From: Minisyncoccota bacterium
GTDB taxonomy: Bacteria; Patescibacteriota; Minisyncoccia; Phycocordibacterales; UBA2100
Direction: 5' to 3'
Assembly (NCBI GenBank): GCA_022842645.1
Contig: JALHPE010000001.1
Span: 329,462 to 393,461, forward strand
Length of the DNA stretch: 64,000 bases
Shown here: piece after piece, positions 1-36,854 of the stretch
How positions within the stretch are numbered: the stretch's first letter is position 1
Layout of the letters: the number at the start of each line of letters is the position of its first letter
Made by a program: the position numbers and the translations under genes
Notes under the pieces: generated by a model
Databases searched by the model: none
What the model was told of the DNA's origin: nothing
What the model saw: only the letters and a program-made list of their open reading frames with translations

Positions 1-2
1 CT

Positions 3-302
3 TCGGACGCCACAATCGCAGCGCTCAACGAACTTATTTCAAGCGTTTCAAACAGCGCATCCCAAGCAAACCAACAACAGGCACTCCTTCGTCTCGATAC
101 CCTCGTTGCAAACGGTCAACTCCGTACGGCACAAGACGCCACAAATGCGGCGCAACAGAGAGATAATGTACTCGGCGCACTTGATACCCTAGTTAAAGAT
201 ACTGTAAAAGCATGGGGTGACAGCACCGATCCTAATGTCGGCTGGTGCAACGTCAACAACACCGCAGTGGTCGAGCGATGGTTCAATGCGTGGAGACAAT
301 AA
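3..302 (+). CDS. 3' end (C-terminal ~99 aa) of an upstream gene truncated by the window edge; hypothetical protein
   Basis: Open frame from the window edge to TAA at 300-302 (…VKDTVKAWGDSTDPNVGWCNVNNTAVVERWFNAWRQ*). Ends 8 nt before the next gene. No recognisable family. Confidence 0.3.
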   Translation, partial: SDATIAALNELISSVSNSASQANQQQALLRLDTLVANGQLRTAQDATNAAQQRDNVLGALDTLVKDTVKAWGDSTDPNVGWCNVNNTAVVERWFNAWRQ

Positions 303-310
303 TATAAATT

Positions 311-2356
311 ATGCCTCTTTTACTCAGTTTCCTTCTCCCAACACTAACGTACGGTGCCGCTGCTGTTGCTGTCTATGCATTCGGAGCAACTATTGCGTCG
401 GGGATTATTTGGATTGGAGCAACTATTCTCGGCGTTGTTGCAATGCTTTTTGATACTCTAATTCTTTACACCGTGGTAAATTTTCACACATTCATATACC
501 CAGCGATTCAAGATGGAATAAATATTACCTGGACAGTGGGGCGCGATATTTCAAACATCGTCATTATAGGTGTATTCACATATGTTGGCATTTCAACAAT
601 ACTTGGCGGTCAGTCTTTTGGAGCAAAATCGCTCATGGCGCGAGTACTTATTATTGCAATGTTGATAAATTTTAGTCTTTTCTTCACACAAGCAATCATT
701 TTTACATCCAATTTTGTAGCTTCAAAGTTTTACTACGCGACAGTACCATCGACGACAGGTGCGGCCACTTCTAACACCTCCCTCCCCACAGAAGAAACAC
801 AGGCAGGTATCGCTGGTCGATTTATGGAACTGGCAGGACTACCATCTCTGTCACGGGCAGGAGAAACAACGCAGGCCATACGCGAACAGCATGATTATGG
901 TTTTTGGATGGCTCTCCTTTATGGGTTCTCGGTGTTTACTATGTGCATCGCTTTTGCGGGAGTATTGTTCTACGCCGTCATTTTATTATTAGGACGCACG
1001 GTGCTTTTCCTGATACTCCTTGCCACATCTTCCTTCGCATTTGGCACACACTTAATACCAAAAGTGTCTGACAACTACGGTTGGAGTATGTGGTGGAACA
1101 CGCTCTTTCGTAACGCGATTTTTGCACCAATACTCCTTATTATGTTATGGGGAACCTTTCAAATTGCAGAATCTTTTGTCAAAACCCAAGGGTCAACCAG
1201 GTCGTTTGATAAGCTATTTCTGGGACAAGGGGACGCGTCAGGAATACTCGCATTATTCTTTTATTTCATAGTATTAGGAATGCTTTATGCTTCAATCCGG
1301 CTTTCAAACATGGTTGCAATGCAACTGCCTGGTTTTAAGTGGGCACCAACTATTGCAGCACTCCCACTGACCCTATCCTCACAATATGGTATAGCCCCAG
1401 CAGGACGAAGGTTCTTGGGGCGCCCTGCCCTTGAACGACAAATGGCACTCGAAAAAGAAATAAAGGATGCGAAGGCTTCTGGTAATTGGAGTGCGGCAAT
1501 AAAAGCTCAAGAAAAATACAACGCACTCAACGCCAGAGCTAAAAGCGACTTCAATCCAATGAATGCGAAGTCATCGCAATGGCTTGCTAAACAACTTGGT
1601 GTCTCAGGCTTTACGGGAGCCCAGAAGATTGGGGGCGCGGCAGCTCAACAAAAAGCTGCAATAAAAGAGGCGGTTGAAAATGTCGGAAAACTTAAGCTTA
1701 GCAAGGATGATCTTGGTGATATAAAGAAAAAAGAGGTTGAAAAGGCGCGTCAGGCATCGGAAGTTACTCTAAAAAATGCAGAGAGCGATCGTAAGCTTGC
1801 CGATGAAAAAAGAAAGAATATCGAAGCAGAGCGTCGTCAAATAGAAGAAGATCACAAAAATGAAGAAAAACGTGTGAAGGACACTATGCATAGGGAAGTA
1901 CAAGAAGATCAGCAAATGAAGCAATTGAAGCAGCAGCTTGCCAACGAAACTGATCCAACTGCGCAAAAATCGATACAACAGAATATGAGGCAGAGGCAGA
2001 GTGCGATCGAACAAGAACATGTAGAGACTATGAGAGAGGTTCAGAACAAGATAGAGACAGCGCGTACTGCAGTAAATACGAGATTGGCCGAAGTCCAGGC
2101 CGAATGGGACGCTCATAACTTGGCAGTAAAAGATATAGAATCGAGCATAGAAACTAGCGGCAAGAAGGCAGTAGAAGCTGCAGAAGAAGGATTCAGAGGT
2201 GCCGTAAAAGAAATGTTGCCTTCTGGCTATCAATCCGAGAAAATGGTTAAAAAAGTCGAAGCTGAGATTGGCAGTGCCCGACTAAAAGAAAAGCTCAAAC
2301 TCATGGTTGATGATGTAAAAGGAGATGATGCCAACGAGGAAAAGAAAGCGAAATAA
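311..2356 (+). CDS. TrbL/VirB6-like polytopic membrane protein of a type IV secretion-like system, with a long C-terminal K/E/Q-rich coiled-coil extension
   Basis: 681-aa ORF whose first ~330 aa contain at least 6 hydrophobic helices (e.g. GAAAVAVYAFGATIASGIIWIGATILGVVAMLF, LIIAMLINFSLFFTQAIIFT, FAGVLFYAVILLLGRTVLFLILLATSSFAF). The C-terminal ~330 aa are low-complexity and charged with heptad-like periodicity (KEIKDAKAS…EEDHKNEEKRVKD…). It is the first gene of an operon containing a VirB4 ATPase and a VirB2-like pilin. Confidence 0.45.
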   Translation: MPLLLSFLLPTLTYGAAAVAVYAFGATIASGIIWIGATILGVVAMLFDTLILYTVVNFHTFIYPAIQDGINITWTVGRDISNIVIIGVFTYVGISTILGGQSFGAKSLMARVLIIAMLINFSLFFTQAIIFTSNFVASKFYYATVPSTTGAATSNTSLPTEETQAGIAGRFMELAGLPSLSRAGETTQAIREQHDYGFWMALLYGFSVFTMCIAFAGVLFYAVILLLGRTVLFLILLATSSFAFGTHLIPKVSDNYGWSMWWNTLFRNAIFAPILLIMLWGTFQIAESFVKTQGSTRSFDKLFLGQGDASGILALFFYFIVLGMLYASIRLSNMVAMQLPGFKWAPTIAALPLTLSSQYGIAPAGRRFLGRPALERQMALEKEIKDAKASGNWSAAIKAQEKYNALNARAKSDFNPMNAKSSQWLAKQLGVSGFTGAQKIGGAAAQQKAAIKEAVENVGKLKLSKDDLGDIKKKEVEKARQASEVTLKNAESDRKLADEKRKNIEAERRQIEEDHKNEEKRVKDTMHREVQEDQQMKQLKQQLANETDPTAQKSIQQNMRQRQSAIEQEHVETMREVQNKIETARTAVNTRLAEVQAEWDAHNLAVKDIESSIETSGKKAVEAAEEGFRGAVKEMLPSGYQSEKMVKKVEAEIGSARLKEKLKLMVDDVKGDDANEEKKAK

Positions 2357-2359
2357 TAT

Positions 2360-2911
2360 ATGGCAGAACTTACTCTTGATGAAGAACTACGTTCACGATT
2401 CGCACAGTTACCAAAAGTTGTACAGGCTGCCATAACCTCTGCGGAAGTCGAACAACATCTTCGAGTGCTGGCAACAACATATAAACTGCACCTTGACCAG
2501 TGGCAAGTTCTAGAAAATCAAGTAATTCTTGCTCTACTAGGAGCACTGCCGGTGCGCGAATTACCCGAAAGAATATCAAAAACTGTCGGCGTGGACAAAA
2601 AATTAGCATCTGTTCTTGCAAACGACATTTCGCAAACAGTGTTCGAACCCATCCGCCAAGAGCTCGAGCGACAGCTTGAACACCCAGACGCACAAGAGAA
2701 ACAACTCACTGGGACTGAAGCTGCACGCGAACAACTTATCGGGGCTGAAAAAAAAGACTCTGCTCCTGTCGCACCTCCTCCTACACCACCCACACCCACA
2801 GTCGAAGCGGCTATCGCGCGCGCGCCAGCTTCCGGTGCCTACAAGCCTGGCGAGGCATCGGCGGTGCGAAAATCGGTTGTTGACGACCCGTATCGTGAAT
2901 TGCCACAGTAA
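2360..2911 (+). CDS. hypothetical protein in the T4SS-like operon, with a proline-rich PPPTPPTPT linker
   Basis: 183-aa ORF starting 4 nt after the previous stop. No recognisable motif. Pro/Thr linker near the C-terminus. Confidence 0.4.
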   Translation: MAELTLDEELRSRFAQLPKVVQAAITSAEVEQHLRVLATTYKLHLDQWQVLENQVILALLGALPVRELPERISKTVGVDKKLASVLANDISQTVFEPIRQELERQLEHPDAQEKQLTGTEAAREQLIGAEKKDSAPVAPPPTPPTPTVEAAIARAPASGAYKPGEASAVRKSVVDDPYRELPQ

Positions 2912-2937
2912 GAGCCTAATTCGTTGCTATAATCGGA

Positions 2938-3444
2938 GTGATGCAATTCCAAGTACCTCAGTTCATCGAGGTCGAGGATAAAATCTTCGGACCCCTTACC
3001 TTCAAGCAATTCGTCTACGTTGCTGGAGGACTCGGCATTGCCTATATTCTCTGGCGTGCGCTCCCCACATTCCTAGCGGCACCACTTGGCCTTGCCTTCG
3101 CCGGGCTTGGGGTAGCGCTCGCTTTTGTGCAGTACAACGGGCAACCATTTATTGTTGCCGTAGAGCACGCTTTCTTCTATCTTCTGCGCGGGAAACTCTA
3201 CCTCTGGAACAATGAACAGGCAGTAGCACGTGCTAAAAAAACAACACAAGAAGTCAAACTTCCTGCAGAAGCTCCTTATATTCCACGACTTTCTGATAGT
3301 AAGCTCCACGAGCTTTCCTGGAGCCTCGACATCAATGAACGCATTGCTTCGGGTACCACAAGCGGGGAAGAAAGAGTCGCACGAAGTCCAATTGATGACC
3401 TCGTGGCCCCCGTACGCACGCCGCGCAATGCTATTCCTCGATAA
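2938..3444 (+). CDS. PrgI/VirB3-like small membrane protein of the T4SS
   Basis: The N-terminus EVEDKIFGPLTFKQFVYVAGGLGIAYILW followed by a second hydrophobic helix (LGLAFAGLGVALAFV) matches the PrgI-family pattern (K-I-x-G-x-L-T-x-R/K-Q plus two TM helices). The gene sits immediately upstream of VirB4, as PrgI does relative to PrgJ in Gram-positive conjugation systems. Confidence 0.5.
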   Translation: MMQFQVPQFIEVEDKIFGPLTFKQFVYVAGGLGIAYILWRALPTFLAAPLGLAFAGLGVALAFVQYNGQPFIVAVEHAFFYLLRGKLYLWNNEQAVARAKKTTQEVKLPAEAPYIPRLSDSKLHELSWSLDINERIASGTTSGEERVARSPIDDLVAPVRTPRNAIPR

Positions 3445-3447
3445 TCT

Positions 3448-4110
3448 ATGCCCGAAGCATCCACCATTCGTTCGCAAAACCGCTCCACCCAAGAGTTTGT
3501 TCCTATTTCCGAGGTGCGCGACGGTGTAATTGTGCTCAAGGATGGAAGCCTGCGCGCAATCCTTCTCGCCTCGTCTATCAACTTTGCCCTTAAGTCAGAG
3601 GATGAACAAACGGCGTTCATCGTGCAATTCCAAAACTTCCTGAATTCACTTGATTTCTCGACTCAGATTTTCATTGAATCCCGCATGCTTGATATTCGTC
3701 CCTATATTGCGACGCTTGAGGTGGCCTACAAAAGCCAAATGGACGATCTTATGCGCATACAGATTCGTGAATACATCGAATTCATCAAGAGTTTCACCGA
3801 AGCGGCAAACATCATGACGAAAAATTTCTTTGTGGTGGTTCCCTATAACCCCTCATCCCTACCTGCTCTCACCGGAAGTGGTGCAAGTAAATTGTTTGGG
3901 AAAAAGGGAACGGCTTCTGTGGCGGAGGCAAATCGCACTTTTGAAGAAAAAGTATCTCAGCTTGAACAACGTATTGCAATCGTCCAACAAGGCCTCGTGC
4001 GTTGTGGTGTGCGCACCGTGCAGCTCGGTACCGAGGAGGCGATTGAGCTCTTCTACAAACTCTTTAACCCTGGCGAGGAAGGGAAGCCGATGTCACTCAA
4101 CAATGAATAG
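3448..4110 (+). CDS. VirB4 N-terminal-domain-like protein (separate ORF; possible split VirB4)
   Basis: 220-aa ORF starting 3 nt after the PrgI-like gene and ending 56 nt before the VirB4 ATPase ORF, in a different frame. Its size plus the 660-aa ATPase ORF approximates a full-length VirB4/TrbE (~800-880 aa). No ATPase motifs of its own. Confidence 0.4.
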   Translation: MPEASTIRSQNRSTQEFVPISEVRDGVIVLKDGSLRAILLASSINFALKSEDEQTAFIVQFQNFLNSLDFSTQIFIESRMLDIRPYIATLEVAYKSQMDDLMRIQIREYIEFIKSFTEAANIMTKNFFVVVPYNPSSLPALTGSGASKLFGKKGTASVAEANRTFEEKVSQLEQRIAIVQQGLVRCGVRTVQLGTEEAIELFYKLFNPGEEGKPMSLNNE

Positions 4111-4166
4111 GAGTCAAGCTGCGAGCTTATAGGAAAAGCATAGTAGAATAAAGCTTACGGCGTTGG

Positions 4167-6149
4167 TTGTTACCATGTTGCCGCCTGACGCTTGAACCTA
4201 TGGGTATATTCGATCTTTTTTCAAAAAAAGGGGCGGAGCCGGCAGCGGTCTTGCCAGTCTTGCCAGAAGAGATCTATCGCACAGGGGTGCTTGGGCTTCA
4301 AGACGTGATTGCGCCGCACGCGCTTAAGATCAACTCACGCGAACTTGACCTCGGCGAGAAAATTGCACGCACCTTTTTTGTTATTTCGTATCCGCGCTTT
4401 CTCACGACGGGTTGGTTTGCTCCTATCATCAACCTCGACAAGGTTATTGATGTTTCGATTTTCGTCCACCCGATGGACACCAACGAAATGCTGCGTAAAT
4501 TCCAAAAGAAAGTAGCTGAGGTGCAATCTCAAATTTCAACACGAGAAGAAAAAGGTATGGTGCGCGACCCGGTTCTCGACACTGCGTATCAAGACCTTGA
4601 AAAACTCCGCGACTCTCTCCAGCAAGCACAAGAACGCATCTTCGAAGTGGGTCTCTACCTCACCATCTATGGCAATTCACGAGAGGAAATAGATAAAACA
4701 GAGAGCGAAATTCGCTCCATTCTCGAATCCCGCCTCGTTTACATTCGCCCAGCGCTTTTCCAGCAGGAACAAGGTTTTCGTTCGGTTATTCCACTTGCAA
4801 CGGATGAACTTGGTGTCCACACCAAACTCAATTCCGCACCACTCTCATCCATTTTCCCGTTCATTTCCTTCGACCTTACATCCGACCGCGGCATCCTTTA
4901 CGGCATCAATCGTCATAACTCCTCACTTATCCTCTTCGATCGTTTCTCGCTCGAAAACTACAATTCGGTCACGTTCGCAAAATCTGGTTCTGGTAAAAGC
5001 TACACAACGAAGCTCGAAATCCTGCGCTCGCTAATGTTCGATACGGAGGTTATCGTCATCGACCCCGAGCGTGAGTACGAATACCTTGCAGAAACCGTGG
5101 GTGGGCGGTACTTCAATATTTCTCTCTCATCTGAACACCACATCAATCCTTTTGACCTCCCAATTCCACGCGAAGACGAGTCGCCAGGCGATGTCTTGCG
5201 CAACAACATCATCACGCTCGTCGGCCTCTTCCGCATCATGCTCGGAGGACTTACTCCAGAGGAAGATGCGGTGATCGACAAAGCAATCACCGAAACCTAC
5301 GCTCTCAAGGACATCACGGCGGATGCAAATTTTGCCTCTATTGAGCCACCACTCCTTTCCGACTTCGAACTAGTGCTCTCCGGCATGGAGGGCTCGGAGT
5401 CTCTCGTCGCGCGCCTCTCGAAATACACCAAAGGCACGTGGTCGGGCTTCATGAACCGCCCGACAAACGTCGACATGAATAAAAAGCTTATTGTCTTTTC
5501 CGTCCGCGACATGGAAGACGATTTGAAGCCTGTCGCGATGTATATCATTACCCACCACATTTGGAATGCCGTACGCAAGGAACTTCGCAAGCGCCTCCTC
5601 GTCATCGACGAGGCATGGTGGATGATGAAATCTGAAGACACGGCATCCTTCCTCTTTGGAATAGCAAAACGTGGCCGTAAATACTACCTTGGACTCTCGA
5701 CGATTACCCAAGACGTAAACGACTTTCTCACCTCTCCCTATGGCGCAGCAATGATTACTAACTCGTCTATCCAACTCCTCCTGCGTCAATCACCTACATC
5801 CGTCGATCTCGTGCAAAGCACCTTTAAACTTTCTGACGAAGAAAAGTATCTCTTGCTCGAATCTGATGTGGGGGAGGGTATCTTCTTTGCAGGACTTAAA
5901 CATGTCGCGATTAAAGTCATTGCATCGTATACAGAAGACCAGATTATTACATCTGATCCATCACAAATTCTTGCGATAAAGAAAGCAAAACAGGAACTCG
6001 TTGCTTCACAGGAAGTGCCGAGCACTCCGGTGAGTCAAGAGGCGCGTGGTGCAGCGGCTGATATTCTGAAAAATGCAGAACTCAAGAGCGCAAGCGGAAC
6101 ACCGCAAGAGGCTCCAAGCGAACCCCCACTTCCGCCGGGTATAGTATGA
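4167..6149 (+). CDS. virB4: VirB4/TrbE/CagE-family type IV secretion ATPase (ATPase domain)
   Basis: Walker A FAKSGSGKSYTT, Walker B LLVIDEAWWMM, and the conserved downstream GRKYYLGLSTITQ typical of VirB4/TraC ATPases. The probable true start is MGIFDLFSKKG at 4200. Confidence 0.8.
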   Translation: MLPCCRLTLEPMGIFDLFSKKGAEPAAVLPVLPEEIYRTGVLGLQDVIAPHALKINSRELDLGEKIARTFFVISYPRFLTTGWFAPIINLDKVIDVSIFVHPMDTNEMLRKFQKKVAEVQSQISTREEKGMVRDPVLDTAYQDLEKLRDSLQQAQERIFEVGLYLTIYGNSREEIDKTESEIRSILESRLVYIRPALFQQEQGFRSVIPLATDELGVHTKLNSAPLSSIFPFISFDLTSDRGILYGINRHNSSLILFDRFSLENYNSVTFAKSGSGKSYTTKLEILRSLMFDTEVIVIDPEREYEYLAETVGGRYFNISLSSEHHINPFDLPIPREDESPGDVLRNNIITLVGLFRIMLGGLTPEEDAVIDKAITETYALKDITADANFASIEPPLLSDFELVLSGMEGSESLVARLSKYTKGTWSGFMNRPTNVDMNKKLIVFSVRDMEDDLKPVAMYIITHHIWNAVRKELRKRLLVIDEAWWMMKSEDTASFLFGIAKRGRKYYLGLSTITQDVNDFLTSPYGAAMITNSSIQLLLRQSPTSVDLVQSTFKLSDEEKYLLLESDVGEGIFFAGLKHVAIKVIASYTEDQIITSDPSQILAIKKAKQELVASQEVPSTPVSQEARGAAADILKNAELKSASGTPQEAPSEPPLPPGIV

Positions 6150-7150
6150 GACTTCTTATAGTACTCATACTTCTGTGTGCACTTCCTGTTCACGGGCAGT
6201 CATTCGTAACTGGCGTCGAACGCGAATTATCGCTTTCGATGAACCCCGAGCATCCAAGCGCAGGAGAGCGTGTGCGTTTTTCCCTCGAAGGATATGCGGT
6301 TGATGTCGATCGAAGCATGATTGTATGGTATGTGAATGGCAAAGAAGTGGCGCGTGGTGCGGGGCTCAAAGACTTTGAAAGAGACGCTCCTCGACTTGGT
6401 AGCGAAGAGACTATTCGCGCCGTGGCAGAGGAGGTTTCAGGAATTATTGGTGTTGGAACAGCACTACTTCGACCCGGTGAGGTAACACTGCTCTGGGAAG
6501 CGCAGTCTTATACTCATCCTTTTTATAGAGGTCGCGCGCTTCCAGGTTCACAGAGCACCATTCGCGCCCATGCATTCACTGACTTACGGCGCGGCACGGC
6601 CCGTATTGCAGAAAACGATATTATTTTTTCGTGGTATCGAGATGGTGCCCGATTCTCATCGGGTCGCGGCCTCTCCTCGGTCTCATTCCAGGGCCCCACA
6701 CTCTTCGATAGTGACCGAATTGGGGTTGTGGCAGAGTCGCTTGATGGCACAATCTCTGCACGATCTGAGACGTCTCTGCGTGGCGAAGACGCAAAACTCG
6801 AACTCTACGAACATCATCCTCTGTTTGGCACGCTCTATCATCGCGCGTTCGTAGGAACCGTACTAAACCTTGAGGAGGAGCAGAAAGTCGCTACAGTGCC
6901 ATTCTTCGCCCCCGTCACGCCGCGCGATCCTTCGCTTGTGTATGAGTGGGCAGCAGGAGGAGTAACTACATCTCCCGATCCTCAAACACCTGAGATACTC
7001 ACACTCCGTCGGGAAGGAGAGTTTAATGGGGTAATTACACTTGCACTAACACTCTCGAGTCTCTCCGACATATTCCTGAAAGCAACAAACACCTGGAGTA
7101 TTCAGTACGCCCCGGAGACGAACTTCTCAAATCCCTTCTTGTCACTATGA
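6146..7150 (+). CDS. secreted hypothetical protein (signal peptide) in the T4SS-like operon
   Basis: N-terminal MRLLIVLILLCALPVHGQS signal-like sequence. ATGA overlap with the virB4 stop. No family recognised. Confidence 0.5.
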   Translation: MRLLIVLILLCALPVHGQSFVTGVERELSLSMNPEHPSAGERVRFSLEGYAVDVDRSMIVWYVNGKEVARGAGLKDFERDAPRLGSEETIRAVAEEVSGIIGVGTALLRPGEVTLLWEAQSYTHPFYRGRALPGSQSTIRAHAFTDLRRGTARIAENDIIFSWYRDGARFSSGRGLSSVSFQGPTLFDSDRIGVVAESLDGTISARSETSLRGEDAKLELYEHHPLFGTLYHRAFVGTVLNLEEEQKVATVPFFAPVTPRDPSLVYEWAAGGVTTSPDPQTPEILTLRREGEFNGVITLALTLSSLSDIFLKATNTWSIQYAPETNFSNPFLSL

Positions 7151-8364
7151 ACCTCTCTGAGCATCAAGATACATTTCGCATTATTGGCATAACCGCCGCC
7201 GCCTTCCTTATCTTGGGACTGGGCGGTTGGTATATTTTTCTATCTCGCAGTGAGGCAAATCTTGAATCGATTGGAGAATCGCGTGGTTTTTCAGTGGGAA
7301 TTCCTTCGTTTTCTGGAAGTCGTGGCTCGACGATTGAAAATCTCGTACAAGGACTTGCGCCACGTGGCGCAGAACCTATAGGAACCTCAACGAATATACG
7401 CCCACCGCGCCTCTTTCAGGTCAGTCAAACACCTGTTGCGGGCGCGGCGTTTATTGTAAACGGAAGCACCACTCTGATTCGTTTTGTTGAACGCTCAAAT
7501 GGACATGTGTTTGATGCAAATCTTGAAACAGGAGAAGTGATCCGGCGCACGAACACTTCACTCGGCACCATATACGAAGCACATGTTGGTAGTGGAGAGG
7601 CGTTCTTGCTCCGCACACTTGATGACGAGGGGGATGTGCGCACACTGTTCGCAACTTTTGGTACTACAACTGAAAATGATCTGCGCGACCTCGAAACGCG
7701 TGATGTGGGCCCCACCCACGGAGTAGCGTTTCGGGGAGAGACACCGCTTTTCCTTTTCGGAAATGGTGGCAGTCGTCTCGTGGCCTCCTCAACTAACAAG
7801 GAGGAGTTGTTATTTTCATCATCGCTTCAGGGATGGCACATCGTGCGCACAAGCCCCCTTGTCGTTGCTGAGCGTCCCGCACATGGCATACTAGGCAGTG
7901 CATTCAGGGTCTTTTCGCCCTCGAGAATCGAAAGAATAGCAACTGAACGAGGACTTACTATTGCGGCGCATCCACAGAGCGAAGCCTATCTCATAGGGAC
8001 AGCGGGGGAGAGTATGGCACTTTTTGCACAAACATCAGCCACGACAACTCGCGCACTACTTGATATTAAAACGATTGCCGACAAATGTGCATGGGCTCCT
8101 GGCCGATCACTCACCGCCTATTGTGCGGTTCCGCAAGATGAGACTCCAGGAGGCTTCCTTGACCTCTGGTACCGAGGCGCGGTGCATACTAACGATCATT
8201 GGTTTACTGTTGAGTCGGGTTCAGGCACAACTGAGCGCTTATTTGCACCTGAAGGAGACCTTATACTTGATGTTGAAAATCCGCATATAGACGAGAGTGC
8301 ACGATACATTCTTTTTATGAACGCCCGCGATAAATCATTATGGACACTCCGTATTTATGAATAA
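7147..8364 (+). CDS. membrane-anchored hypothetical protein in the T4SS-like operon
   Basis: N-terminal TM anchor ITAAAFLILGLGGWYIFL. 4-nt overlap with the upstream gene. Predicted extracytoplasmic beta-rich body. Confidence 0.5.
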   Translation: MNLSEHQDTFRIIGITAAAFLILGLGGWYIFLSRSEANLESIGESRGFSVGIPSFSGSRGSTIENLVQGLAPRGAEPIGTSTNIRPPRLFQVSQTPVAGAAFIVNGSTTLIRFVERSNGHVFDANLETGEVIRRTNTSLGTIYEAHVGSGEAFLLRTLDDEGDVRTLFATFGTTTENDLRDLETRDVGPTHGVAFRGETPLFLFGNGGSRLVASSTNKEELLFSSSLQGWHIVRTSPLVVAERPAHGILGSAFRVFSPSRIERIATERGLTIAAHPQSEAYLIGTAGESMALFAQTSATTTRALLDIKTIADKCAWAPGRSLTAYCAVPQDETPGGFLDLWYRGAVHTNDHWFTVESGSGTTERLFAPEGDLILDVENPHIDESARYILFMNARDKSLWTLRIYE

Positions 8365-8749
8365 GATCGCTCAAGCCACCCCATTTGAAGGAGGTTTCGC
8401 AATCGGCAGACAGGGTGAGGCGCAACAAGTTCAACCCCTTGGACAATTGTTCGATCCCAACTCTTCACTGGCAGATTTCTTCCAAGCGCTTTTCTACACG
8501 GCGATCGCCGTCGGCGCGACCCTTGCGGTCTTACGCCTTGGCTATGCTGGGTTTCTCTACATGGGAGGTGATTCCTTTGGAAAAATCACGGAAGCAAAGA
8601 GAATTATGCAGGACGTTGTGCTCGGACTCCTCCTTCTCCTTGCGGTCTATGTAATCTTGAATCAAATCAACCCAGATATTCTGAATCTTGATATTCTGCG
8701 AAGTATCCCAACCCAGGAGGGGGCCCCAACAAACACGTTTACACAGTAG
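8357..8749 (+). CDS. VirB2/TrbC-like T4SS pilin candidate
   Basis: 130-aa protein with two hydrophobic helices (FFQALFYTAIAVGATLAVLRLGYAGFLYM and VVLGLLLLLAVYVILN) separated by a short loop, the classic VirB2/TrbC pilin architecture. It is the last gene of the T4SS-like operon and overlaps the previous gene by 8 nt. Confidence 0.45.
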   Translation: MNKIAQATPFEGGFAIGRQGEAQQVQPLGQLFDPNSSLADFFQALFYTAIAVGATLAVLRLGYAGFLYMGGDSFGKITEAKRIMQDVVLGLLLLLAVYVILNQINPDILNLDILRSIPTQEGAPTNTFTQ

Positions 8750-9212
8750 TCTCGCTGCTGTAGCGAATAACCACGCGGCGGGAACGACCCTCGCCGTGCG
8801 ATTCGGTCTTAACATTCGGCGCGTTTTGGAGCGTGGTGTGTACAATGAGACGCTCATACGCACTCATAGGGGAGAGTTCGACGTCATACTGAAACGAACG
8901 CGCACGCTCTGCCATCATAAGCGCCTTTGTTTGAAGGTCCCGAATTTGGCGTGCCCTATAGTCGTTTACATCTACGAGAAAATGGGGTTCCTCTCCTGTT
9001 TGCCCCGCCTTCATGCGAGCGTGCTCAACAATACGCTTGAGAAGAAAATCGAGCGCATGCACAGTGTCTCCGTGCGTACCAATAAGCGCCTTACCGTCGG
9101 GTACAGTGATAGAGAGCACCGTCTGTCCGACGATGTCCTGCTCTTTAACCTCAGTGTAGGTAACCCCGATAGTATCTAGGATCGTGCGGAGGATTTCTAG
9201 AGGGGGCTGCAT
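8739..9212 (-). CDS. jag: Jag/KhpB RNA-binding protein (KH + R3H domains)
   Basis: KH-like IVGQTVLSITVPDGKALIGTHGDTVHALDFLLKRIV and R3H-like SAYERLIVHTTLQNAPNVKTESHGEGRSRRVVIRY. Lies downstream of yidC as in the conserved rpmH-rnpA-yidC-jag cluster. Confidence 0.8.
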   Translation of the reverse strand: MQPPLEILRTILDTIGVTYTEVKEQDIVGQTVLSITVPDGKALIGTHGDTVHALDFLLKRIVEHARMKAGQTGEEPHFLVDVNDYRARQIRDLQTKALMMAERARSFQYDVELSPMSAYERLIVHTTLQNAPNVKTESHGEGRSRRVVIRYSSETTV

Positions 9213-9249: not shown

Positions 9250-9993
9250 CTAGACTGATTTTTGAGCCTCTTTTGTGCGACCGCGACTCATAAGAAGCTC
9301 TTGACCTATCATGAATATGTTGCTGGTTGCCCAATAGAGGGGGAGCGCTGCCGAAAGGCTATATGAAATAGCAGTGAATAGCACAGGAAGGACATACCGA
9401 GCCTGGAGATCAAAACTACGCGCCATATCAGCAGAAAATGATACTTCTTCGGTATGAGGCTTTGGTTGACGCGGCCCCATAGAAAGGCGAGTGTAGATAT
9501 ATTGAGTTACCCCCGTAAGAAGCGCGAGGAGGAGACTTCGTTCTCCCATGTCTATGAAGCCTAAAAATGACATATCAACGAAGGGGGGTGCTGGCACAAA
9601 GCTATAGAGTATTTCAGTATTAATTGCTGGTAGGCCACCCTTCCAAAATACCCAGTAGAGCCCGAAAAGGATGGGGAGTTGGAGGAGTACAAGGAAAAAA
9701 GTTGAAAATGGGCGTATATTCCTCTCTTTGTAGAGCGCAAACATGGCTCGCGCCTGCTCTTCTTGGTTATCTTTGTGCTTTTTCTTAAGCTCTTCCATCT
9801 CCGGCGCAATTGCCCGCATAGCGGTCTGTGTCCGTATTGCCTGCCGCGAGAGAGGGATAAGAATGACTTTTACCGCAAGCGTGAGAATGATGACGGCAAT
9901 ACCCACATCGTGCCCAGGCACAATGTCGATGAGATAAATAAGGGCGTTATAGAGTGGCTCATAAATACCTTCACGAAACGCGGCGGTAAACAT
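9250..9993 (-). CDS. yidC: YidC/Oxa1-family membrane protein insertase (short form)
   Basis: Multi-TM 247-aa protein with the YidC core pattern (…LLQLPILFGLYWVF…LPLYWATSNIFMIGQ). Sits between rnpA and jag. Confidence 0.85.
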   Translation of the reverse strand: MFTAAFREGIYEPLYNALIYLIDIVPGHDVGIAVIILTLAVKVILIPLSRQAIRTQTAMRAIAPEMEELKKKHKDNQEEQARAMFALYKERNIRPFSTFFLVLLQLPILFGLYWVFWKGGLPAINTEILYSFVPAPPFVDMSFLGFIDMGERSLLLALLTGVTQYIYTRLSMGPRQPKPHTEEVSFSADMARSFDLQARYVLPVLFTAISYSLSAALPLYWATSNIFMIGQELLMSRGRTKEAQKSV

Positions 9994-10011: not shown

Positions 10012-10362
10012 CTAGCTTTCACCGCCAGTGGGGATGACTCCCAAACGAGTAAGGAGTGGATATATATCTTTACGGAGGTCATCTATCTGAGCATTGGATG
10101 CTCCTGATTTTGCATACACAACCACCACTGTGGGGTGTGGTAACGATGGTATAATTTTTTGAAATATGGCTCGTATACGGCGTTTTATTCGGTTTCTATC
10201 AACCGCTTTTCTGGCGGCCTTTTTTGAGACAACACACGCAAACCCACGCACCTGGCGCCCGTGTACGCTACCAATCGCAAGCGTAAGGTAGGTGCCCCCC
10301 ACACGCCTCTCCACCTTCAGGTGGTTAAAATCATGGCGCGAGAGCCTCTGTGGAGCAGACAT
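10012..10362 (-). CDS. rnpA: ribonuclease P protein component
   Basis: RnpA motif VSKKAARKAVDRNRIKRRIRAIF. Start overlaps the rpmH stop (ATGA-type overlap), the classic arrangement. Confidence 0.85.
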   Translation of the reverse strand: MSAPQRLSRHDFNHLKVERRVGGTYLTLAIGSVHGRQVRGFACVVSKKAARKAVDRNRIKRRIRAIFQKIIPSLPHPTVVVVYAKSGASNAQIDDLRKDIYPLLTRLGVIPTGGES

Positions 10363-10496
10363 TATGCGGCAAGTCGTGTACGACCCTTGCGCATACGGCG
10401 CTGGAGTACACGACGCCCGGTTTTTGTAGCAAGACGCGCTCTAAACCCATGCGTTCGGGCGCGCTTTCGCTTTTTTGGCTGATAGTTTCGCTTCAT
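10362..10496 (-). CDS. rpmH: 50S ribosomal protein L34
   Basis: Not in the supplied ORF track (too short). Hand translation of the minus strand gives [44 protein letters not shown], a near-consensus L34. Confidence 0.9.
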
Positions 10497-10687
10497 GACG
10501 CGACTATACCGTATCTTGAGCTATTTTGGAAGGGTGGGTGGCTATCCACAGAGTTATACACAGCTTGTGAACAGTTTGAGTGTGTGACGCTGTCACTTCA
10601 CATGACTCTCTGACTGCGTATAATTACCCCCACTATGCGTGCGTGCATACGGTGTGTGCATCAATTCCATAGTGAATTTTCTTCACT
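10497..10687. promoter_or_regulatory. rpmH-dnaA divergent intergenic region with DnaA-box-like motifs (part of oriC/dnaA promoter region)
   Basis: CTATCCACA and GTTATACACA (TTATNCACA consensus) at about 10538-10562, between divergent rpmH and dnaA. Confidence 0.4.
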
Positions 10688-12031
10688 ATGATAACTAACA
10701 GGGAATTATGGCAGAATGCGCTCGTCCAGATAGAGCTCGGCACTTCTGAGGCGAGTTTTCGAACTTGGTTCCGTAATACCGACGTTGTCTCGCGTGATGG
10801 CAGCACTATTCATCTTGCCGTTCCTTCAAAAATTGTGAAGGAATGGCTTATGGAGAAGCACCATAAACTCATCCTTGGCACCCTTCGTTCGCTCGATAAT
10901 ACGATTAGGGTAGTTGAGTATGTGGTGAACCGATCGGTGGGAGAACCTCGCCGTGTTGAAAAAACACCCCCAGCAAACACCTCTCTCGACCTTGGACAGC
11001 TCTATATTGATAAACGAGACAACTTGAACCCCCGTTACACTTTTGAAACATTTGTAGTTGGTCCCTTTAATCAACTGGCTCACGCTGCGGCAAAGGCGGT
11101 TATAGAACGCCCCGGACTCGCGTACAACCCCTTCTTCGTCTATGGCGCAAGCGGGCATGGTAAAACCCACCTGATTCAAGCAATTGGTAACCATTTTAAG
11201 AAGACACATACCAATAAAAAGGTTTTTTATGTTTCCTCTGAGCGTTTTGCAGTTGATTTCATCAACGCGGTTTCACGAGGTCGCGCAAATGATTTTAAAG
11301 ATCAGTACCGACAGTACGACGTCCTTATTATGGATGATATTCAATTCATGGCTGAAAAGGAGCGTACACAAGAAGAACTGTTCCATCTTTTTAATGCAAT
11401 GCACGATAACAACAAGCAAATAATTTTCTCTTCGGATAAACATCCCATGCTTCTTCCGGGATTTGAGGATCGTGTCCGAGGCCGTCTCTCTGCAGGAGTC
11501 ATTATGGAAATTCCGGAGCCTGATGTTGAATCACGCATTGCAATTATAAAAGCAAAGATAGAACAACTTGGCTTTAGTCTTCCCGAGGACATCATCACTC
11601 ATATTGCCGAAACTGTGCGAGGCAACATTCGCGAACTTGAGGGAATCATTAATATGATTGTGTGCAAATCCCAACTGAAAGGGAAGGCGATTACTCTCCC
11701 GGACGTACGCACCCTCATAAAACATAATGTTCGTCCTTCAAAAGGTGTCTCTGTAGAAGAGGTGGTGCGCCGTATTGCGCAATATTATGAAGTTGCAGAG
11801 AAGAGTATTTACGAAAAAACCCGAAAGAAGGAGGTGGTGAAGCCACGTCAAATAATTATGTATATCTTACGAGAGGAATTTAATGTTTCGTACCCATCAA
11901 TTGGAGAAAAGCTTGGTGGAAGAGACCACACTACCGTGATTCACTCATGCGAAAAAATAAAAGATGAGGTTAAGCGCAGCACCTCCCTCGATCAAGAGCT
12001 TGAACATATTCGCACTTTAGTACACGCATAA
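10688..12031 (+). CDS. dnaA: chromosomal replication initiator protein DnaA
   Basis: AAA+ Walker A GASGHGKTHL, sensor motifs, and a C-terminal DnaA-box-binding domain (…VSYPSIGEKLGGRDHTTVIHSCEKI…). Confidence 0.95.
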   Translation: MITNRELWQNALVQIELGTSEASFRTWFRNTDVVSRDGSTIHLAVPSKIVKEWLMEKHHKLILGTLRSLDNTIRVVEYVVNRSVGEPRRVEKTPPANTSLDLGQLYIDKRDNLNPRYTFETFVVGPFNQLAHAAAKAVIERPGLAYNPFFVYGASGHGKTHLIQAIGNHFKKTHTNKKVFYVSSERFAVDFINAVSRGRANDFKDQYRQYDVLIMDDIQFMAEKERTQEELFHLFNAMHDNNKQIIFSSDKHPMLLPGFEDRVRGRLSAGVIMEIPEPDVESRIAIIKAKIEQLGFSLPEDIITHIAETVRGNIRELEGIINMIVCKSQLKGKAITLPDVRTLIKHNVRPSKGVSVEEVVRRIAQYYEVAEKSIYEKTRKKEVVKPRQIIMYILREEFNVSYPSIGEKLGGRDHTTVIHSCEKIKDEVKRSTSLDQELEHIRTLVHA

Positions 12032-12255
12032 CTATGTGGATAGTATTCGAACAACAAGAGATTTTGTGTGGAAAAAAAATATATATTACCTACCCAAATT
12101 TTATCCCCACACACCAACACGAGTTATTGATGTACTTTTCCCCAAACACACATACCCAAAATAGTAGTTAAAGACTCACTAAAAAAGACTTTTCCACCTA
12201 TACACATTACTAATAGTAATAATAAGTATTAATAAATAAATAATTATAAACACCT
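12032..12255. promoter_or_regulatory. candidate oriC (dnaA-dnaN intergenic): DnaA boxes plus AT-rich unwinding element
   Basis: DnaA-box-like 9-mers (TATCCACAT on minus at ~12034-12044, TTATCCCCACA, CTATACACA) followed by a >40-nt almost pure A/T stretch (ATTACTAATAGTAATAATAAGTATTAATAAATAAATAATTATAAA) just upstream of dnaN. Confidence 0.5.
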
Positions 12256-13353
12256 ATGCAATTCATCACCACACACGAATCTTTTCTTAAAGCGGTGCTT
12301 ATTGCAGAACGTGTTGTAGGAAAAAAAGAATCACTCCCCGTCCTTTCATGTGTAGTGCTTGATGTGGGTGGTAATGAGTGTGTGGTTAAAAGTACCAACC
12401 TTGAGGCTGGTGTTGAGATTCGGGTACATGCAGATGTAAAAGAGAAGGGTGTTATTGCTATTCCTGTTTCTGTGCTTTCTCAAACAATCAGATCATCTTC
12501 GGGAGATAAAATAGTTCTCCGTGCGGATCAAGGGAATCTACGAGTTGAATCAAAAGGTTTAAAAACGATTATAAAAGCTGTGCCGCATGAGGAATTTCCC
12601 ACTATCCCTCGCGATGTTTCGGAAAACAATATTTCTATCCCTCGCGAAAGTCTTCTTTCTTTATTTCATTCAGTTTCGTACGCAGCATCATCTTCGATGA
12701 TTCGTCCGGAACTGGGGAGTGTATATCTTTCTATTAACGATGGTGTGGTCACTGCTGTTGCAACGGATTCGTTTAGACTCGCGGAAAAAACTCACCCATT
12801 CAAGGGTGATGTATCTGGGGATGTGCTCATTCCACTTAAACATGTCCATGAAATAACACACATCCTCGAGCGCGTGTCAGATGCGGACATAACACTTTCC
12901 ACTAGTGATGCACAACTCTCTCTTTCAACGAGTATGGTGGCATTTGTTTCCCGTGTTATTGATGGAACATTTCCTAACTATAAAGAAATTTTACCCAAGA
13001 AATTTTCAACAGAAGCCACGCTTCTCAAAGCCGATTTTGCTGAGTCTCTCAGGAAAGCTCGTATTTTTTCTGGCGCGGATCAACATGTGGGATTCCATGT
13101 GTATCCAAAGAAAAAAATATTTGACGTTACAGCACAAAGTGCGGCGATTGGGGAGATGTCGGATTCACTTGAGGCAGCGGTTACCGGCGAGGATGTTGAT
13201 GTTAACTTTCATATAGGCTATGTAGCGGATGCGCTGCAATCTATTCCCTCAGATTCACTTATTCTCGGTTTTTCGGGGGCAGGGAAGCCGCTGGTTATGC
13301 GTGGGGTTGGGGATTCTACATTCACCTACCTTGCAATGCCCCTTAATCGCTAG
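12256..13353 (+). CDS. dnaN: DNA polymerase III beta sliding clamp
   Basis: 365 aa, three-domain beta-clamp pattern. Immediately downstream of dnaA. Confidence 0.9.
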   Translation: MQFITTHESFLKAVLIAERVVGKKESLPVLSCVVLDVGGNECVVKSTNLEAGVEIRVHADVKEKGVIAIPVSVLSQTIRSSSGDKIVLRADQGNLRVESKGLKTIIKAVPHEEFPTIPRDVSENNISIPRESLLSLFHSVSYAASSSMIRPELGSVYLSINDGVVTAVATDSFRLAEKTHPFKGDVSGDVLIPLKHVHEITHILERVSDADITLSTSDAQLSLSTSMVAFVSRVIDGTFPNYKEILPKKFSTEATLLKADFAESLRKARIFSGADQHVGFHVYPKKKIFDVTAQSAAIGEMSDSLEAAVTGEDVDVNFHIGYVADALQSIPSDSLILGFSGAGKPLVMRGVGDSTFTYLAMPLNR

Positions 13354-18421: not shown

Positions 18422-20134
18422 TCACGATATTGTTTCAAGCATTACTTCGTCGTGAAGATCCACTACGCGTCCAAGCTCGTCGAGTGATGTGATACCTTGA
18501 AGCACTTTTACTGCGCCGTCTTGTGCCATGCGACGAATTTGCTGCGGTTTTGCTGCTCTCCAAATCTCGCGCTCGCTTGTTGTTGTGCGGATGACTGTTT
18601 CCACCGCCTTATCCATCAAAATCACTTCGACGATGCCCATCCGACCTTTGTAACCAATCCCACCGCACTTCGCACATCCTTTTGCCATCCACGTGGAGTC
18701 TCGTTTTTCCGGAACGCCCTCGGGGTGTGGAATGTGCGCGAGGAGTGTTTGCATTGTCTTTGCATCCTCGGGAGAGAGTGGTGTTTCTGTGCGGCAGTCG
18801 GGGCAGAGTTTGCGCACAAGGCGCTGTGCCATGGAAACAGTGAGTGCGGCGCCGAGAATGTCGGCGTTCACTCCCATGTCGATGAGGCGGGGAAAGGTGC
18901 CCGCGGCGTCATTGGTGTGCAGCGTGGAGAACACTAGGTGACCGGTCAGTGATGCGTTTACTGCAGTTGAGGCAACTTCACTGTCGCGGATCTCGCCCAC
19001 CATGATGATGTCAGGGTCTTGGCGCAGTGTTGAGCGCAGCCCCGAGGCAAAGGTGTAGTCTTTCGAGACCTGTGTTTGAACGACGCCTGGGAGGTGATAT
19101 TCAATAGGGTCTTCGATGGTAACCACTTTTATTTCCGGATTCGATACTTGTTTGAGAAAGGCATACAACGTCGTTGTTTTTCCGCTTCCGGTGGGACCTG
19201 TATTGAGGATCATGCCGTTGGGCTTCGCAATTTCCTTATTGAAAATCTCCATGAGGTAGGAATCAAAGCCAAGCTTTTCCATGGGGAGTGCAATGGTCGA
19301 GGGGTCGAGAATACGCATCACAATAGTTTCGGCGTAAGCCCCGGGAAGAATGGAGGCGCGAATCTCAATTTCTTTTTCATTCACCTGAATAGAGAAGCGT
19401 CCGTCTTGTGCGGCGTTTTTGATATTGAGTTTGAGTCCTGAGAGAAGCTTGAGGCGCGAAGAGATGAGGTTATAGGTGGGGGCATCAAAGACAAGTACCT
19501 CGAGGAGAACGCCGTCAAGGCGGTAGCGCATGCGAACCCCTGTTTCTTCTGGTTCTAAGTGAACGTCTGAAGCGCCGAGTGCGAGCGCACCTGCCATGAT
19601 GACCTCCAGGACGCGCGAGATACGATGGCTGTCTTTGCTACCCGCGAGATTCTGAATTTCCACTTTTACATCCTCCAGTGTTTTAATCTCGGCGAGCATG
19701 CGTTGAATTGTCTCGTTTGAGAGCGTCAGAATCCCAGCCTCTGTTTCTGTGGCGAATGAGATGTCGTGATAGCGATCCCATGCGTGGTCAAGCGATGCGC
19801 GAGAGACGATAAAGCGACGCACTTCAAAACCGAGGCGTTCGACGTTTGCGATGGCGCGCATGGTGTCGTCGCGTTCCGGCGCGCGCGCTGCGATCCAAAT
19901 CTTCTTGTTGAGCTTATGGAACGCCGCCACCTCTGCTTCACGCGCTTCTTTTTCAGGGATCAGACGCAAAGCATCGGTATCAATCGACTTCTTAGTGAGA
20001 TCGACATATTCAACGCCGTATTTCCCGGCGAGCATTTCTGCAAGCTGCTCTTCTTCGCGGCGGCGTAATTCTTCCAAGCGCTCTTCTTGTTTATGCTCAT
20101 TGAATTGGGCGGACATACGTATATAGTAGCGCAC
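18422..20134 (-). CDS. pilB: type II/IV secretion system ATPase (PilB/GspE family; type IV pilus assembly ATPase)
   Basis: Walker A GPTGSGKTTTLYA, Asp box, His box, and the tetracysteine motif CPDC…CAKCGG typical of PilB/GspE. An alternative start is MSAQFNEHK at 20116. Confidence 0.85.
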   Translation of the reverse strand: MRYYIRMSAQFNEHKQEERLEELRRREEEQLAEMLAGKYGVEYVDLTKKSIDTDALRLIPEKEAREAEVAAFHKLNKKIWIAARAPERDDTMRAIANVERLGFEVRRFIVSRASLDHAWDRYHDISFATETEAGILTLSNETIQRMLAEIKTLEDVKVEIQNLAGSKDSHRISRVLEVIMAGALALGASDVHLEPEETGVRMRYRLDGVLLEVLVFDAPTYNLISSRLKLLSGLKLNIKNAAQDGRFSIQVNEKEIEIRASILPGAYAETIVMRILDPSTIALPMEKLGFDSYLMEIFNKEIAKPNGMILNTGPTGSGKTTTLYAFLKQVSNPEIKVVTIEDPIEYHLPGVVQTQVSKDYTFASGLRSTLRQDPDIIMVGEIRDSEVASTAVNASLTGHLVFSTLHTNDAAGTFPRLIDMGVNADILGAALTVSMAQRLVRKLCPDCRTETPLSPEDAKTMQTLLAHIPHPEGVPEKRDSTWMAKGCAKCGGIGYKGRMGIVEVILMDKAVETVIRTTTSEREIWRAAKPQQIRRMAQDGAVKVLQGITSLDELGRVVDLHDEVMLETIS

Positions 20135-33975: not shown

Positions 33976-34869
33976 ATGAGCAACAGTCTCTCTCGTGTTT
34001 TTCTATACGTACTTCTTGTTTTCATGTGTATTCCTTTTCTCGTAGCCGCAGAGGGTGGTAGCGGTCAGTGTGATAGTCAGTACAACAGTTGCCTCAAGGC
34101 AAAGCGCTCAGGTTGTGAACAGCAGTGGCAATCGTGTATGTCGAAATGCAATGTTGGTGGTGGGGCGGTTGGTTCTTGCAATAAGGATCCCGAGTGTCAG
34201 CTCCATTGTACTGAATCTGCAACGTCACAGGGCGGGCGCATTAGCTGTTGCGAAGGTGGGCCGAAACATCAGAACTCATGTCCCAATAAAGTAGATGGTA
34301 ATTGCGAGCCGAAGAAAACAGAAGGTGGAGAAGGAGGAAAGCCACCTGAATTTCCCAAGCCGCCACAAGGTGGCGGTGGGGGAGGGGGAAGCCCTGCGGC
34401 AACTAGTACAGCGGAATGTGATGAGACGGCAACAACAACAAAAAATATGCCGTGTGTAAGAAGTACCAGTGGAGTCAGTGGTTATTTTAATAATATCTTT
34501 TCTACCGACAAAGGTAGCGTCACGGAAAATGTACAATCAACACTTTCTTCAGCCGCTGATAAGCTCTCATCGTTTTTGTTTGGTACGGACTCGGGCACAA
34601 AGGAGACTTCCGGCAGGGGTGCGGAAACTCCCGCGAACACAAACAATCCTGTCGTTCCGACGGGGGGCACACAGCTTACTCCGCAGGTGGTACAAGCAAC
34701 ACCGATTGGATCTAGGACGGACACAGGAGCGCCCTCTGCGGCGGTCACTGGTTTTGGAAATCAAAACACGCCCTCCACCGAACAATCAGGTGTCATGAAG
34801 GCGATTGGAGAAACTCTTAGCGGCATTGGGGTGACGCTCCGCAATCTTCTCTCTTCGTTCGCTTTCTGA
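33976..34869 (+). CDS. secreted Cys-rich / poly-Gly / Thr-Ser-rich protein (paralogue of 23592..24830)
   Basis: Signal peptide MSNSLSRVFLYVLLVFMCIPFLVAA, a Cys-rich module (CDSQYNSCLKAKRSGCEQQWQSCMSKCN…CQLHC…CCEGG…C), a GGGGGGGS run, and a T/S/G-rich tail. Confidence 0.5.
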   Translation: MSNSLSRVFLYVLLVFMCIPFLVAAEGGSGQCDSQYNSCLKAKRSGCEQQWQSCMSKCNVGGGAVGSCNKDPECQLHCTESATSQGGRISCCEGGPKHQNSCPNKVDGNCEPKKTEGGEGGKPPEFPKPPQGGGGGGGSPAATSTAECDETATTTKNMPCVRSTSGVSGYFNNIFSTDKGSVTENVQSTLSSAADKLSSFLFGTDSGTKETSGRGAETPANTNNPVVPTGGTQLTPQVVQATPIGSRTDTGAPSAAVTGFGNQNTPSTEQSGVMKAIGETLSGIGVTLRNLLSSFAF

Positions 34870-36347: not shown

Positions 36348-36349
36348 GT

Positions 36350-36853: not shown

Positions 36854-36854
36854 T

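Follow-up and report, generated by a model that had tools for sequence, protein, structure and literature searches.

An unusual type IV secretion system (T4SS) encoded beside dnaA was described in Southlakia epibionticum by Wang et al. in 2023; it has pilins and resembles Gram-positive conjugation systems, with no recognizable relaxase or type IV coupling protein (T4CP), and transposon sequencing (Tn-seq) showed the T4SS genes and the pilins to be essential for epibiotic growth (PMC10633639). Quinonero-Coronel et al. (2025) subsequently found VirB4 in 2,417 of 3,035 genomes and placed the Patescibacteria proteins in a clade nested within MPF_FATA, with TrsD, PrgI/VirB3, VirB6 and VirB2-like pilins encoded near virB4 and relaxases being rare (109 in the 3,035 genomes); the cluster neighbors dnaA, dnaN, rnpA, rpmH and ksgA in Paceibacteria and Microgenomatia, a placement that the authors read as a gene-dosage effect (PMC12102498). 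A 2025 review lists the Patescibacteria T4SSs as a new T4SS subgroup (PMC12857230). Here we analyze a T4SS cluster in a 64,000-nt stretch of DNA from a Minisyncoccota bacterium (contig JALHPE010000001.1), hereafter the window, in whose coordinates all T4SS positions are given. The locus matches the published Patescibacteria T4SS, also in lacking a relaxase and in lying close to dnaA. Such a chromosomal cluster adjoins dnaA in nearly all ultra-small Patescibacteria, and the present genome is Paceibacteria/Kaiserbacteria-like. The interpretation offered in an earlier note on this DNA, made from the sequence alone, is thus correct but already published for the phylum, including the proximity to dnaA, dnaN, rnpA, rpmH and ksgA (PMC12102498; PMC10633639; PMC12857230).

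We read the cluster as a Patescibacterial T4SS that serves an episymbiotic lifestyle rather than conjugative DNA transfer, and put the probability of this reading at about 0.72. The cluster encodes a predicted cytoplasmic-membrane translocon, which consists of an extended VirB6, a PrgI/VirB3 protein, and a VirB4 that is split into a TrsD-like N-domain and a motor. Eight plus-strand open reading frames (ORFs) are confirmed between positions 311 and 8749, and they are closely packed: the intergenic gaps from ORF1 to ORF5 are, in order, 3, 26, 3 and 89 nt, these are followed by overlaps of 4, 4 and 8 nt, and ORF8 overlaps the 3′ end of the convergent jag gene by 11 nt. Profile searches assign the VirB6 (modestly), PrgI/VirB3, VirB4 N-domain, VirB4 and VirB2 identities that the earlier note had proposed.

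The motor is encoded by ORF5 (4167/4200–6149, plus strand; 660/649 aa), a VirB4 ATPase of the MPF_FATA/CD1110 type. It scores 360.9 bits against NF045971 (VirB4, CD1110 family; cut-off 325) over model positions 186–733, matches the TraG P-loop family PF19044 with an E value of 2.6e-25, and carries the Walker A motif AKSGSGKS and the Walker B motif LLVIDE. Its best solved relative is the Thermoanaerobacter VirB4 (PDB ID: 4AG5; E 6e-43), and TrwK of R388 is matched at 5e-7. The open frame extends from a TTG at 4167, but the ATG at 4200 is the likely start because orthologs align from that methionine. For comparison, VirB4 peptide patterns served to collect loci from GTDB species genomes, and the loci were ordered by the similarity of their VirB4; this yielded at least 572 relatives, of which the best 80 are used throughout. 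Among these best 80, ORF5 is 73–92% identical to its orthologs.

The missing N-terminal part of VirB4 is found in ORF4 (3448–4110, plus strand; 220 aa), which matches NF041427 (TrsD) with an E value of 1.4e-9, under the full-length cut-off, and for which a precomputed match to the TraC-like family PF26593 is on record. ORF4 matches only the N-terminal ~120–180 positions of four VirB4 models (E 1e-9 to 1e-7), covering positions 2–118 of the CD1110 model and 2–181 of the TIGR00929 VirB4 model. Between them, ORF4 and ORF5 account for complementary stretches of the VirB4 models, which means that VirB4 is split into two ORFs. ORF4 is present in 78 of the 80 loci at 53–82% identity; the split is therefore a conserved one and not a frameshift.

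The gene that precedes it, ORF3 (2938–3444, plus strand; 168 aa), encodes a PrgI/VirB3-like small membrane protein that matches PF12666 (PrgI) with 40.3 bits against a cut-off of 27 and is present in 76 of the 80 loci. In five relatives PrgI and TrsD are fused into a single ORF of 357–369 aa (L023:8887-9996, L031:1275-2348, L032:8889-9995, L039:8894-9985 and L060:8911-9999), which supports the view that TrsD is the VirB3-binding N-domain of VirB4. No VirB3–VirB4 fusions were reported in Patescibacteria by the survey (PMC12102498). The PrgI and TrsD ORFs of the window are in frame with each other, one stop and one codon apart. Stop read-through or a recent fission was considered as an explanation and rejected: among 71 unfused pairs, 25 are in frame, as expected by chance, and there is no signal of read-through.

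ORF1 (311–2356, plus strand; 681 aa) encodes a polytopic membrane protein with approximately seven hydrophobic segments within residues 1–330, followed by a Lys/Glu-rich coiled-coil tail of ~350 aa, as judged from a hydropathy scan. Its homologs P0084, P0078 and P0086 carry PF04610 or PF19590 (TrbL or TrbL_3). When a profile of the whole family was compared with the PDB, the result was swamped by the tail and returned only coiled-coil proteins, so the membrane domain was used instead; the top match was then TrwI, the VirB6 of R388, although the match is weak (E 0.0054). On this modest evidence we accept ORF1 as a putative, divergent “extended VirB6”. ORF2 (2360–2911, plus strand; 183 aa) is a conserved, apparently soluble protein: it lacks a hydrophobic segment, and the alignment shows an N-terminal domain of ~100 aa, a variable Pro-rich linker and a near-invariant C-terminal DPYRE motif, which could act as a docking or recognition peptide. 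ORF2 is found at this position in 48 of the 80 loci and has no match in Pfam or the PDB.

The three remaining genes would supply the extracytoplasmic part of the machine. ORF6 (6146–7150, plus strand; 334 aa) and ORF7 (7147–8364, plus strand; 405 aa) were modeled with AlphaFold2 from alignments of database homologs. The ORF6 model (mean predicted local distance difference test score, pLDDT, of 86) comprises a signal-peptide helix at residues 2–11 and three tandem β-sandwich domains resembling immunoglobulin (Ig) or fibronectin type III (FN3) domains, and Foldseek places these closest to Hoc, SiiE, GhpA and further multi-Ig adhesins or phage decoration proteins. ORF6 follows VirB4 directly in 78 of the 80 loci. 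The family to which it belongs, which has no Pfam model, numbers 4179 representatives at 50% identity, almost all of them 330–360 aa in length. From its predicted structure, ORF6 is a candidate wall-spanning or adhesive subunit. Two giant proteins, P0153 and P0233 (2010 and 2486 aa), hold 21–23 copies of the middle domain of ORF6.

The model of ORF7 (mean pLDDT 87, 28 strands) has an N-terminal transmembrane helix, a disordered linker at approximately residues 40–85 and a predicted seven-bladed β-propeller at 88–405, in which C314 and C326 are invariant; Foldseek returned only generic WD40-type and other β-propellers, at a TM-score of ~0.5. ORF7 is present in 69 of the 80 loci. Both models are confident, and the folds are of an extracytoplasmic type. 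Both proteins evolve quickly, with identities of 22–43%, as would be expected for surface proteins. We considered whether either protein is VirB8-like and rejected the idea: VirB8 has an NTF2 fold, but the folds predicted here are Ig sandwiches and a β-propeller. The 334-aa and 405-aa proteins are, as had been suggested, candidate novel subunits: both are conserved in the cluster, and neither has a known counterpart among T4SS proteins. ORF8 (8357–8749, plus strand; 130 aa) encodes a VirB2/TrbC-like pilin with two hydrophobic helices; PF18895 is matched by 27 of its 28 orthologs (best E 2.4e-10) and TrbC/VirB2 by five.

Comparison with the relatives shows how firmly the cluster keeps its chromosomal site. 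All of the best 80 are metagenome-assembled genomes (MAGs) of Patescibacteria, and those with names are Kaiser-, Nomura-, Campbell-, Taylor- and Adlerbacteria (Paceibacteria/Parcubacteria). When the eight proteins and their neighbors were mapped by tblastn, the gene order through jag-yidC-rnpA-dnaA-dnaN-pbp1a proved the same in essentially all of these loci, and the upstream genes are syntenic too. Given this conserved order, the cluster is best regarded as a vertically inherited core locus of the class Paceibacteria and not as an integrated element. The GC content of the operon, 0.45–0.52, is the same as that of the rest of the window. The shared layout of these 80 species genomes, the profile assignments and the lack of a nearby relaxase, VirD4 or integrase bear out the view that this is a chromosomal, relaxase-less minimal T4SS of a small-genome episymbiont.

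Conjugation can be weighed against these results. Pfam scans detected no relaxase, VirD4/T4CP or integrase among the ~40 other ORFs of the window or in the 10 kb upstream, as had been noted for the window itself, and none of the VirD4/TraG-D or relaxase Pfam families was matched by the scanned ORFs or the upstream genes. The other window ORFs mainly encode housekeeping proteins (PilB, PolA, a Mur ligase, PilM, ArgRS, IleRS, MetRS, RecA, RuvABC, RecO, EF-P, L11 and UppS). It is nonetheless conceivable that this is a conjugative or mobilizing T4SS that moves chromosomal or plasmid DNA between Patescibacteria or to their hosts, with a relaxase and a coupling protein that are located elsewhere or are too divergent. 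Such a role would suit an ancestry in Gram-positive conjugation machinery and the presence of VirD4 homologs in most Patescibacteria genomes, usually far from virB4 (PMC12102498), and the PIF1/RecD-like helicase at 46624–48219 may be counted in its favor. That helicase (PIF1, AAA_30, UvrD_C_2) was examined as a hidden relaxase and rejected, as it lacks a relaxase domain and is 38 kb away from the T4SS. In the 74 kb around the cluster there is no relaxase, T4CP, integrase or repeat-bounded element, and the chromosomal position is strictly conserved across orders, unlike that of mobile elements. The 109 relaxases among 3,035 genomes argue in the same direction, as does the finding that the t4cp of Southlakia is not essential whereas its T4SS is (PMC12102498). 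With no relaxase or T4CP nearby and the locus fixed in the chromosome, we regard conjugation as highly improbable.

The lack of a nearby relaxase or T4CP is shared by ComB of Helicobacter pylori and Ced of the Sulfolobales, and the cluster could by analogy encode a DNA-uptake machine that imports environmental or host DNA as a source of nucleotides, which the organism is unable to make. A weak match to CedB (E 3.7e-10) would be in keeping with this, as would comM, uvrD, recA, recO and ruvABC in or near the window and the T4SS of class ABY1, which adjoins comF, recG and radA (PMC12102498). The CedB match, however, amounts to 39 bits against a cut-off of 700, where the conjugative CD1110 VirB4 model gives 361 bits; CedD reaches 14 bits, and no VirB8, VirB9 or VirB10 families were found in the cluster. 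The genome also has type IV pilus (T4P) genes of its own, at 18422–20134 (minus strand) and 35265–37376 (plus strand), which encode PilB (T2SSE and MshEN domains) and PilM, with two small ORFs without a Pfam match coming next; the presence of PilB and PilM indicates that the genome has a separate T4P apparatus. Transformation in Saccharibacteria depends on ComEC, and in Southlakia the loss of comEC abolishes competence but leaves the cells viable, whereas the T4SS is essential (as reviewed in PMC12857230). For these reasons DNA uptake seems unlikely here, and of the two roles that the earlier note had offered, uptake and cell-cell attachment, it is the less favored.

An episymbiotic machine that is not conjugative could work as follows. 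By analogy with the R388 structure and with Gram-positive systems, a hexamer of VirB4 (TrsD plus the motor ORF) would dock on VirB3 and VirB6 in the membrane and may drive the extraction of pilin from the membrane and its polymerization. The VirB2-like pilin would then assemble into a short pilus or a conduit through the thin wall, with the Ig and propeller proteins, and probably the three proteins encoded upstream of ORF1 (described below), forming the part that crosses the wall and contacts the host. The machine would thereby support an obligate cell-to-cell lifestyle, be it by contact, by the export of proteins or by exchange with the host, and its position beside oriC could give a high gene dosage.

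A narrower version of this proposal is that the cluster builds only a pilus or adhesion organelle, in which a VirB2 filament with Ig and propeller adhesins ties the cell to its host and no substrate passes. The conserved extracellular parts are indeed a pilin, an adhesin-like three-Ig protein and a propeller, there is no T4CP beside the cluster, and in Paceibacterales grown together with methanogens the T4SS pilins rank among the unknown genes with the highest expression (PMC10936435). This proposal is inseparable from the reading we prefer on sequence data, but the large tail of the extended VirB6 and an ATPase conserved to an extreme degree point to something beyond filament assembly, and host adhesion is already mediated by type IV pili, as shown for Saccharibacteria (PMC10633639; PMC11623550). 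We therefore think it very doubtful that adhesion is the sole function.

The T4SS lies immediately beside core chromosomal genes. The flanking genes are confirmed by Pfam as R3H/Jag, YidC, RnpA, L34, DnaA, DnaN and PBP1A (a class A penicillin-binding protein), in agreement with the jag-yidC-rnpA-rpmH and dnaA assignments made before. On the minus strand are jag (8739–9212), yidC (9250–9993), rnpA (10012–10362) and rpmH (10362–10496), with the Pfam domains R3H, 60KD_IMP, Ribonuclease_P and Ribosomal_L34, respectively. The origin region (10497–13353, plus strand) comprises the rpmH-dnaA spacer with DnaA boxes, dnaA (10688–12031), the dnaA-dnaN spacer with DnaA boxes, and dnaN (12256–13353). The 64-kb window contains 15 one-mismatch DnaA boxes, six of which lie within 10542–12389 (at 10542, 10554, 12035, 12067, 12101 and 12381), either in the two spacers that flank dnaA or a short way into dnaN, and the cumulative GC skew is lowest at ~7–13 kb. 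From this cluster of boxes and the skew minimum, the T4SS is predicted to lie beside the origin. A promoter-like site with 11 of 12 matches is present at 10597–10624; scans of the T4SS operon for promoters and terminators gave nothing above the shuffled expectation. The operon is on the plus strand to the left of the origin, where the GC skew is negative, and is therefore transcribed towards the origin, head-on to replication. This orientation is odd for a highly conserved cluster that is said to gain from origin proximity.

Several points weigh against the episymbiotic reading. The evidence that a T4SS is needed for epibiotic growth comes from Southlakia epibionticum and not from a member of the Paceibacteria. 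Beyond the 74 kb covered, the genome may encode a VirD4-like T4CP or a relaxase. The link between ORF1 and VirB6 is weak (E 0.005 to TrwI; TrbL/VirB6 matches in 9 of 61 orthologs), and the window copy has no direct Pfam match. The PF18895 match of ORF8 itself is 21.7 bits (E 2e-4), below the cut-off (GA) of 26.6. ORF8 also has a hydrophilic N-terminus of ~40 residues and no signal peptide; a hydrophobic signal peptide is present in most of the orthologous pilins and is missing also from the copies of the closest relatives (loci L001, L004 and L020), and an in-frame stop at 8318–8320 leaves no room for a longer pilin ORF with a signal peptide. Median identities are 79% for VirB4 and 54% for DnaA, and VirB4 is the more conserved of the two in 57 of 57 loci (4200–6149 compared with 10688–12031), which would be consistent with strong purifying selection, but this gap is biased and overstated because the loci were picked and ranked by VirB4. 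Finally, the head-on orientation fits poorly with a simple argument that origin placement serves high expression.

The eight genes are not the whole of the cluster. The earlier note had described an eight-gene operon beside the origin; the eight ORFs, their tight packing and the place beside the origin all hold, but the conserved cluster comprises ~11 genes between ksgA and jag, and the window cuts it, starting within another gene. An identical Logan metagenomic contig, L081, in which window position 1 corresponds to L081:9691, supplies the missing part. Positions 1–302 (plus strand) hold the 3′ end, ~100 codons long, of a gene (L081:8268-9992) that encodes a 574-aa protein with a signal peptide and whose TAA stop at 300–302 is 8 nt before ORF1. 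Ahead of it on that strand, two genes encode membrane-anchored proteins of 282 aa and 317 aa, the trio spanning L081:6482-9992. These three genes are kept at this position in 18–37 relatives, and in 35 related loci the 574-aa gene stands ahead of VirB6. Paralogous to each other (hhalign probability 93.6%), the 317-aa and 282-aa proteins form a pair of anchored helical proteins. None of the three proteins has a sequence match in Pfam or the PDB, and a comparison of the 282-aa family profile with the PDB found no VirB8, TraM, TcpC or PrgL chain. The 574-aa protein was considered as a VirB5 or VirB1 and rejected, as neither the PDB nor Pfam supports either assignment; DUF4141 is matched by one of 30 orthologs (1.3e-5), which we treat as a lead only.

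Beyond the trio, the opposite strand encodes a small secreted protein; farther out are ksgA, uvrD, a gene for a LysM-M23 peptidase on the minus strand, and comM. The small secreted protein (103 aa, with a signal peptide; L081:6123-6434, minus strand) is encoded between ksgA and the cluster and has 38–64% identity in 20 relatives. The LysM-LysM-Peptidase_M23 protein (L081:1705-2727, minus strand) is encoded 7 kb upstream of VirB6; among candidates for the missing VirB1-type wall hydrolase it is the nearest, with uvrD and ksgA standing between it and the cluster.

In the remainder of the window, the IleRS gene (49257–52709; 1150 aa) has a histidine-phosphatase (His_Phos_1) domain at residues 502–671, inserted between two parts of the catalytic domain. 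There is no significant Pfam match for the ORFs at 29468–31582 (704 aa), 23592–24830 (412 aa), 53309–55282 (657 aa) and 33976–34869 (297 aa), and an Rfam scan of the window returned only tRNAs.

Taken further, the layout raises the tentative possibility, to which we give clearly less weight, that the Paceibacteria T4SS has an undescribed, class-specific extracellular module. The three-Ig protein, the propeller, the anchored pair and the 574-aa protein would together replace the VirB8, VirB1 and adhesin components known from Gram-positive systems as a new wall-spanning, host-contact structure, with a VirB4 conserved beyond DnaA and a signal-less pilin that is perhaps inserted by a non-Sec route. 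If true, the locus would be a parts list for the host-interaction organelle of the largest Patescibacteria class. A very large share of bacterial diversity belongs to the Patescibacteria, and no T4SS before theirs had been shown to be essential to its own carrier. The locus is not a new kind of system, but it is a clean and complete example of the Paceibacteria layout; the small new points it adds are the upstream trio, the predicted folds of ORF6 and ORF7, the PrgI-TrsD fusions, the signal-less pilin, the DPYRE motif and, with the bias noted above, the higher conservation of VirB4 than of DnaA. The uncharacterized genes that travel with VirB4, namely those for the three-Ig protein, the propeller and the three upstream proteins, are a useful set of targets for structural work and genetics.

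When the locus is compared with known systems, it shares several features with the Gram-positive MPF_FATA/CD1110 machines: VirB4 scores above the CD1110-family cut-off, PrgI and TrsD homologs are present, and the outer-membrane core of VirB7, VirB9 and VirB10 is absent, as expected for a monoderm. It differs from those machines in having no relaxase, no T4CP (PcfC/VirD4), no VirB1-type hydrolase within the operon, no PrgB-type adhesin and no recognizable VirB8-like protein, in encoding a VirB2-like pilin that they lack, and in being a fixed chromosomal locus rather than a plasmid or an integrative and conjugative element. Bordetella Ptl, Brucella VirB, H. pylori ComB and archaeal Ced are likewise without an adjacent T4CP or relaxase and have been repurposed from conjugation (PMC12857230). 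Ptl, Brucella VirB and ComB differ from the present system as diderm MPF_T machines with VirB7-10, and Ced has its own CedA and CedB components, of which CedB is matched weakly here (39 bits).

The closest counterpart is the Southlakia epibionticum cluster SEML1_0004-0019. The two share a core of PrgI, TrsD-like, VirB4 and VirB2-like pilin proteins, to which the putative VirB6-like protein may be added, both are chromosomal and adjoin dnaA without an adjacent relaxase or T4CP, and both encode an Ig-like exported protein downstream of VirB4 (with PEGA/Ig domains in SEML1_0005). There is one pilin here in place of a six-gene pilin array, and one VirB6-like protein in place of two; the lysozyme or peptidase genes that follow VirB4 in Southlakia are absent, and no NTF2/VirB8-like protein was found among ORF6 and ORF7 (judged by predicted fold) and the 282-aa family (judged by sequence only). 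The propeller, the three-Ig protein, the paralogous anchored helical pair and the 574-aa secreted protein are added here. Set against the Saccharibacteria prototype, all of this amounts to variation at the level of the class in a system of a known kind.

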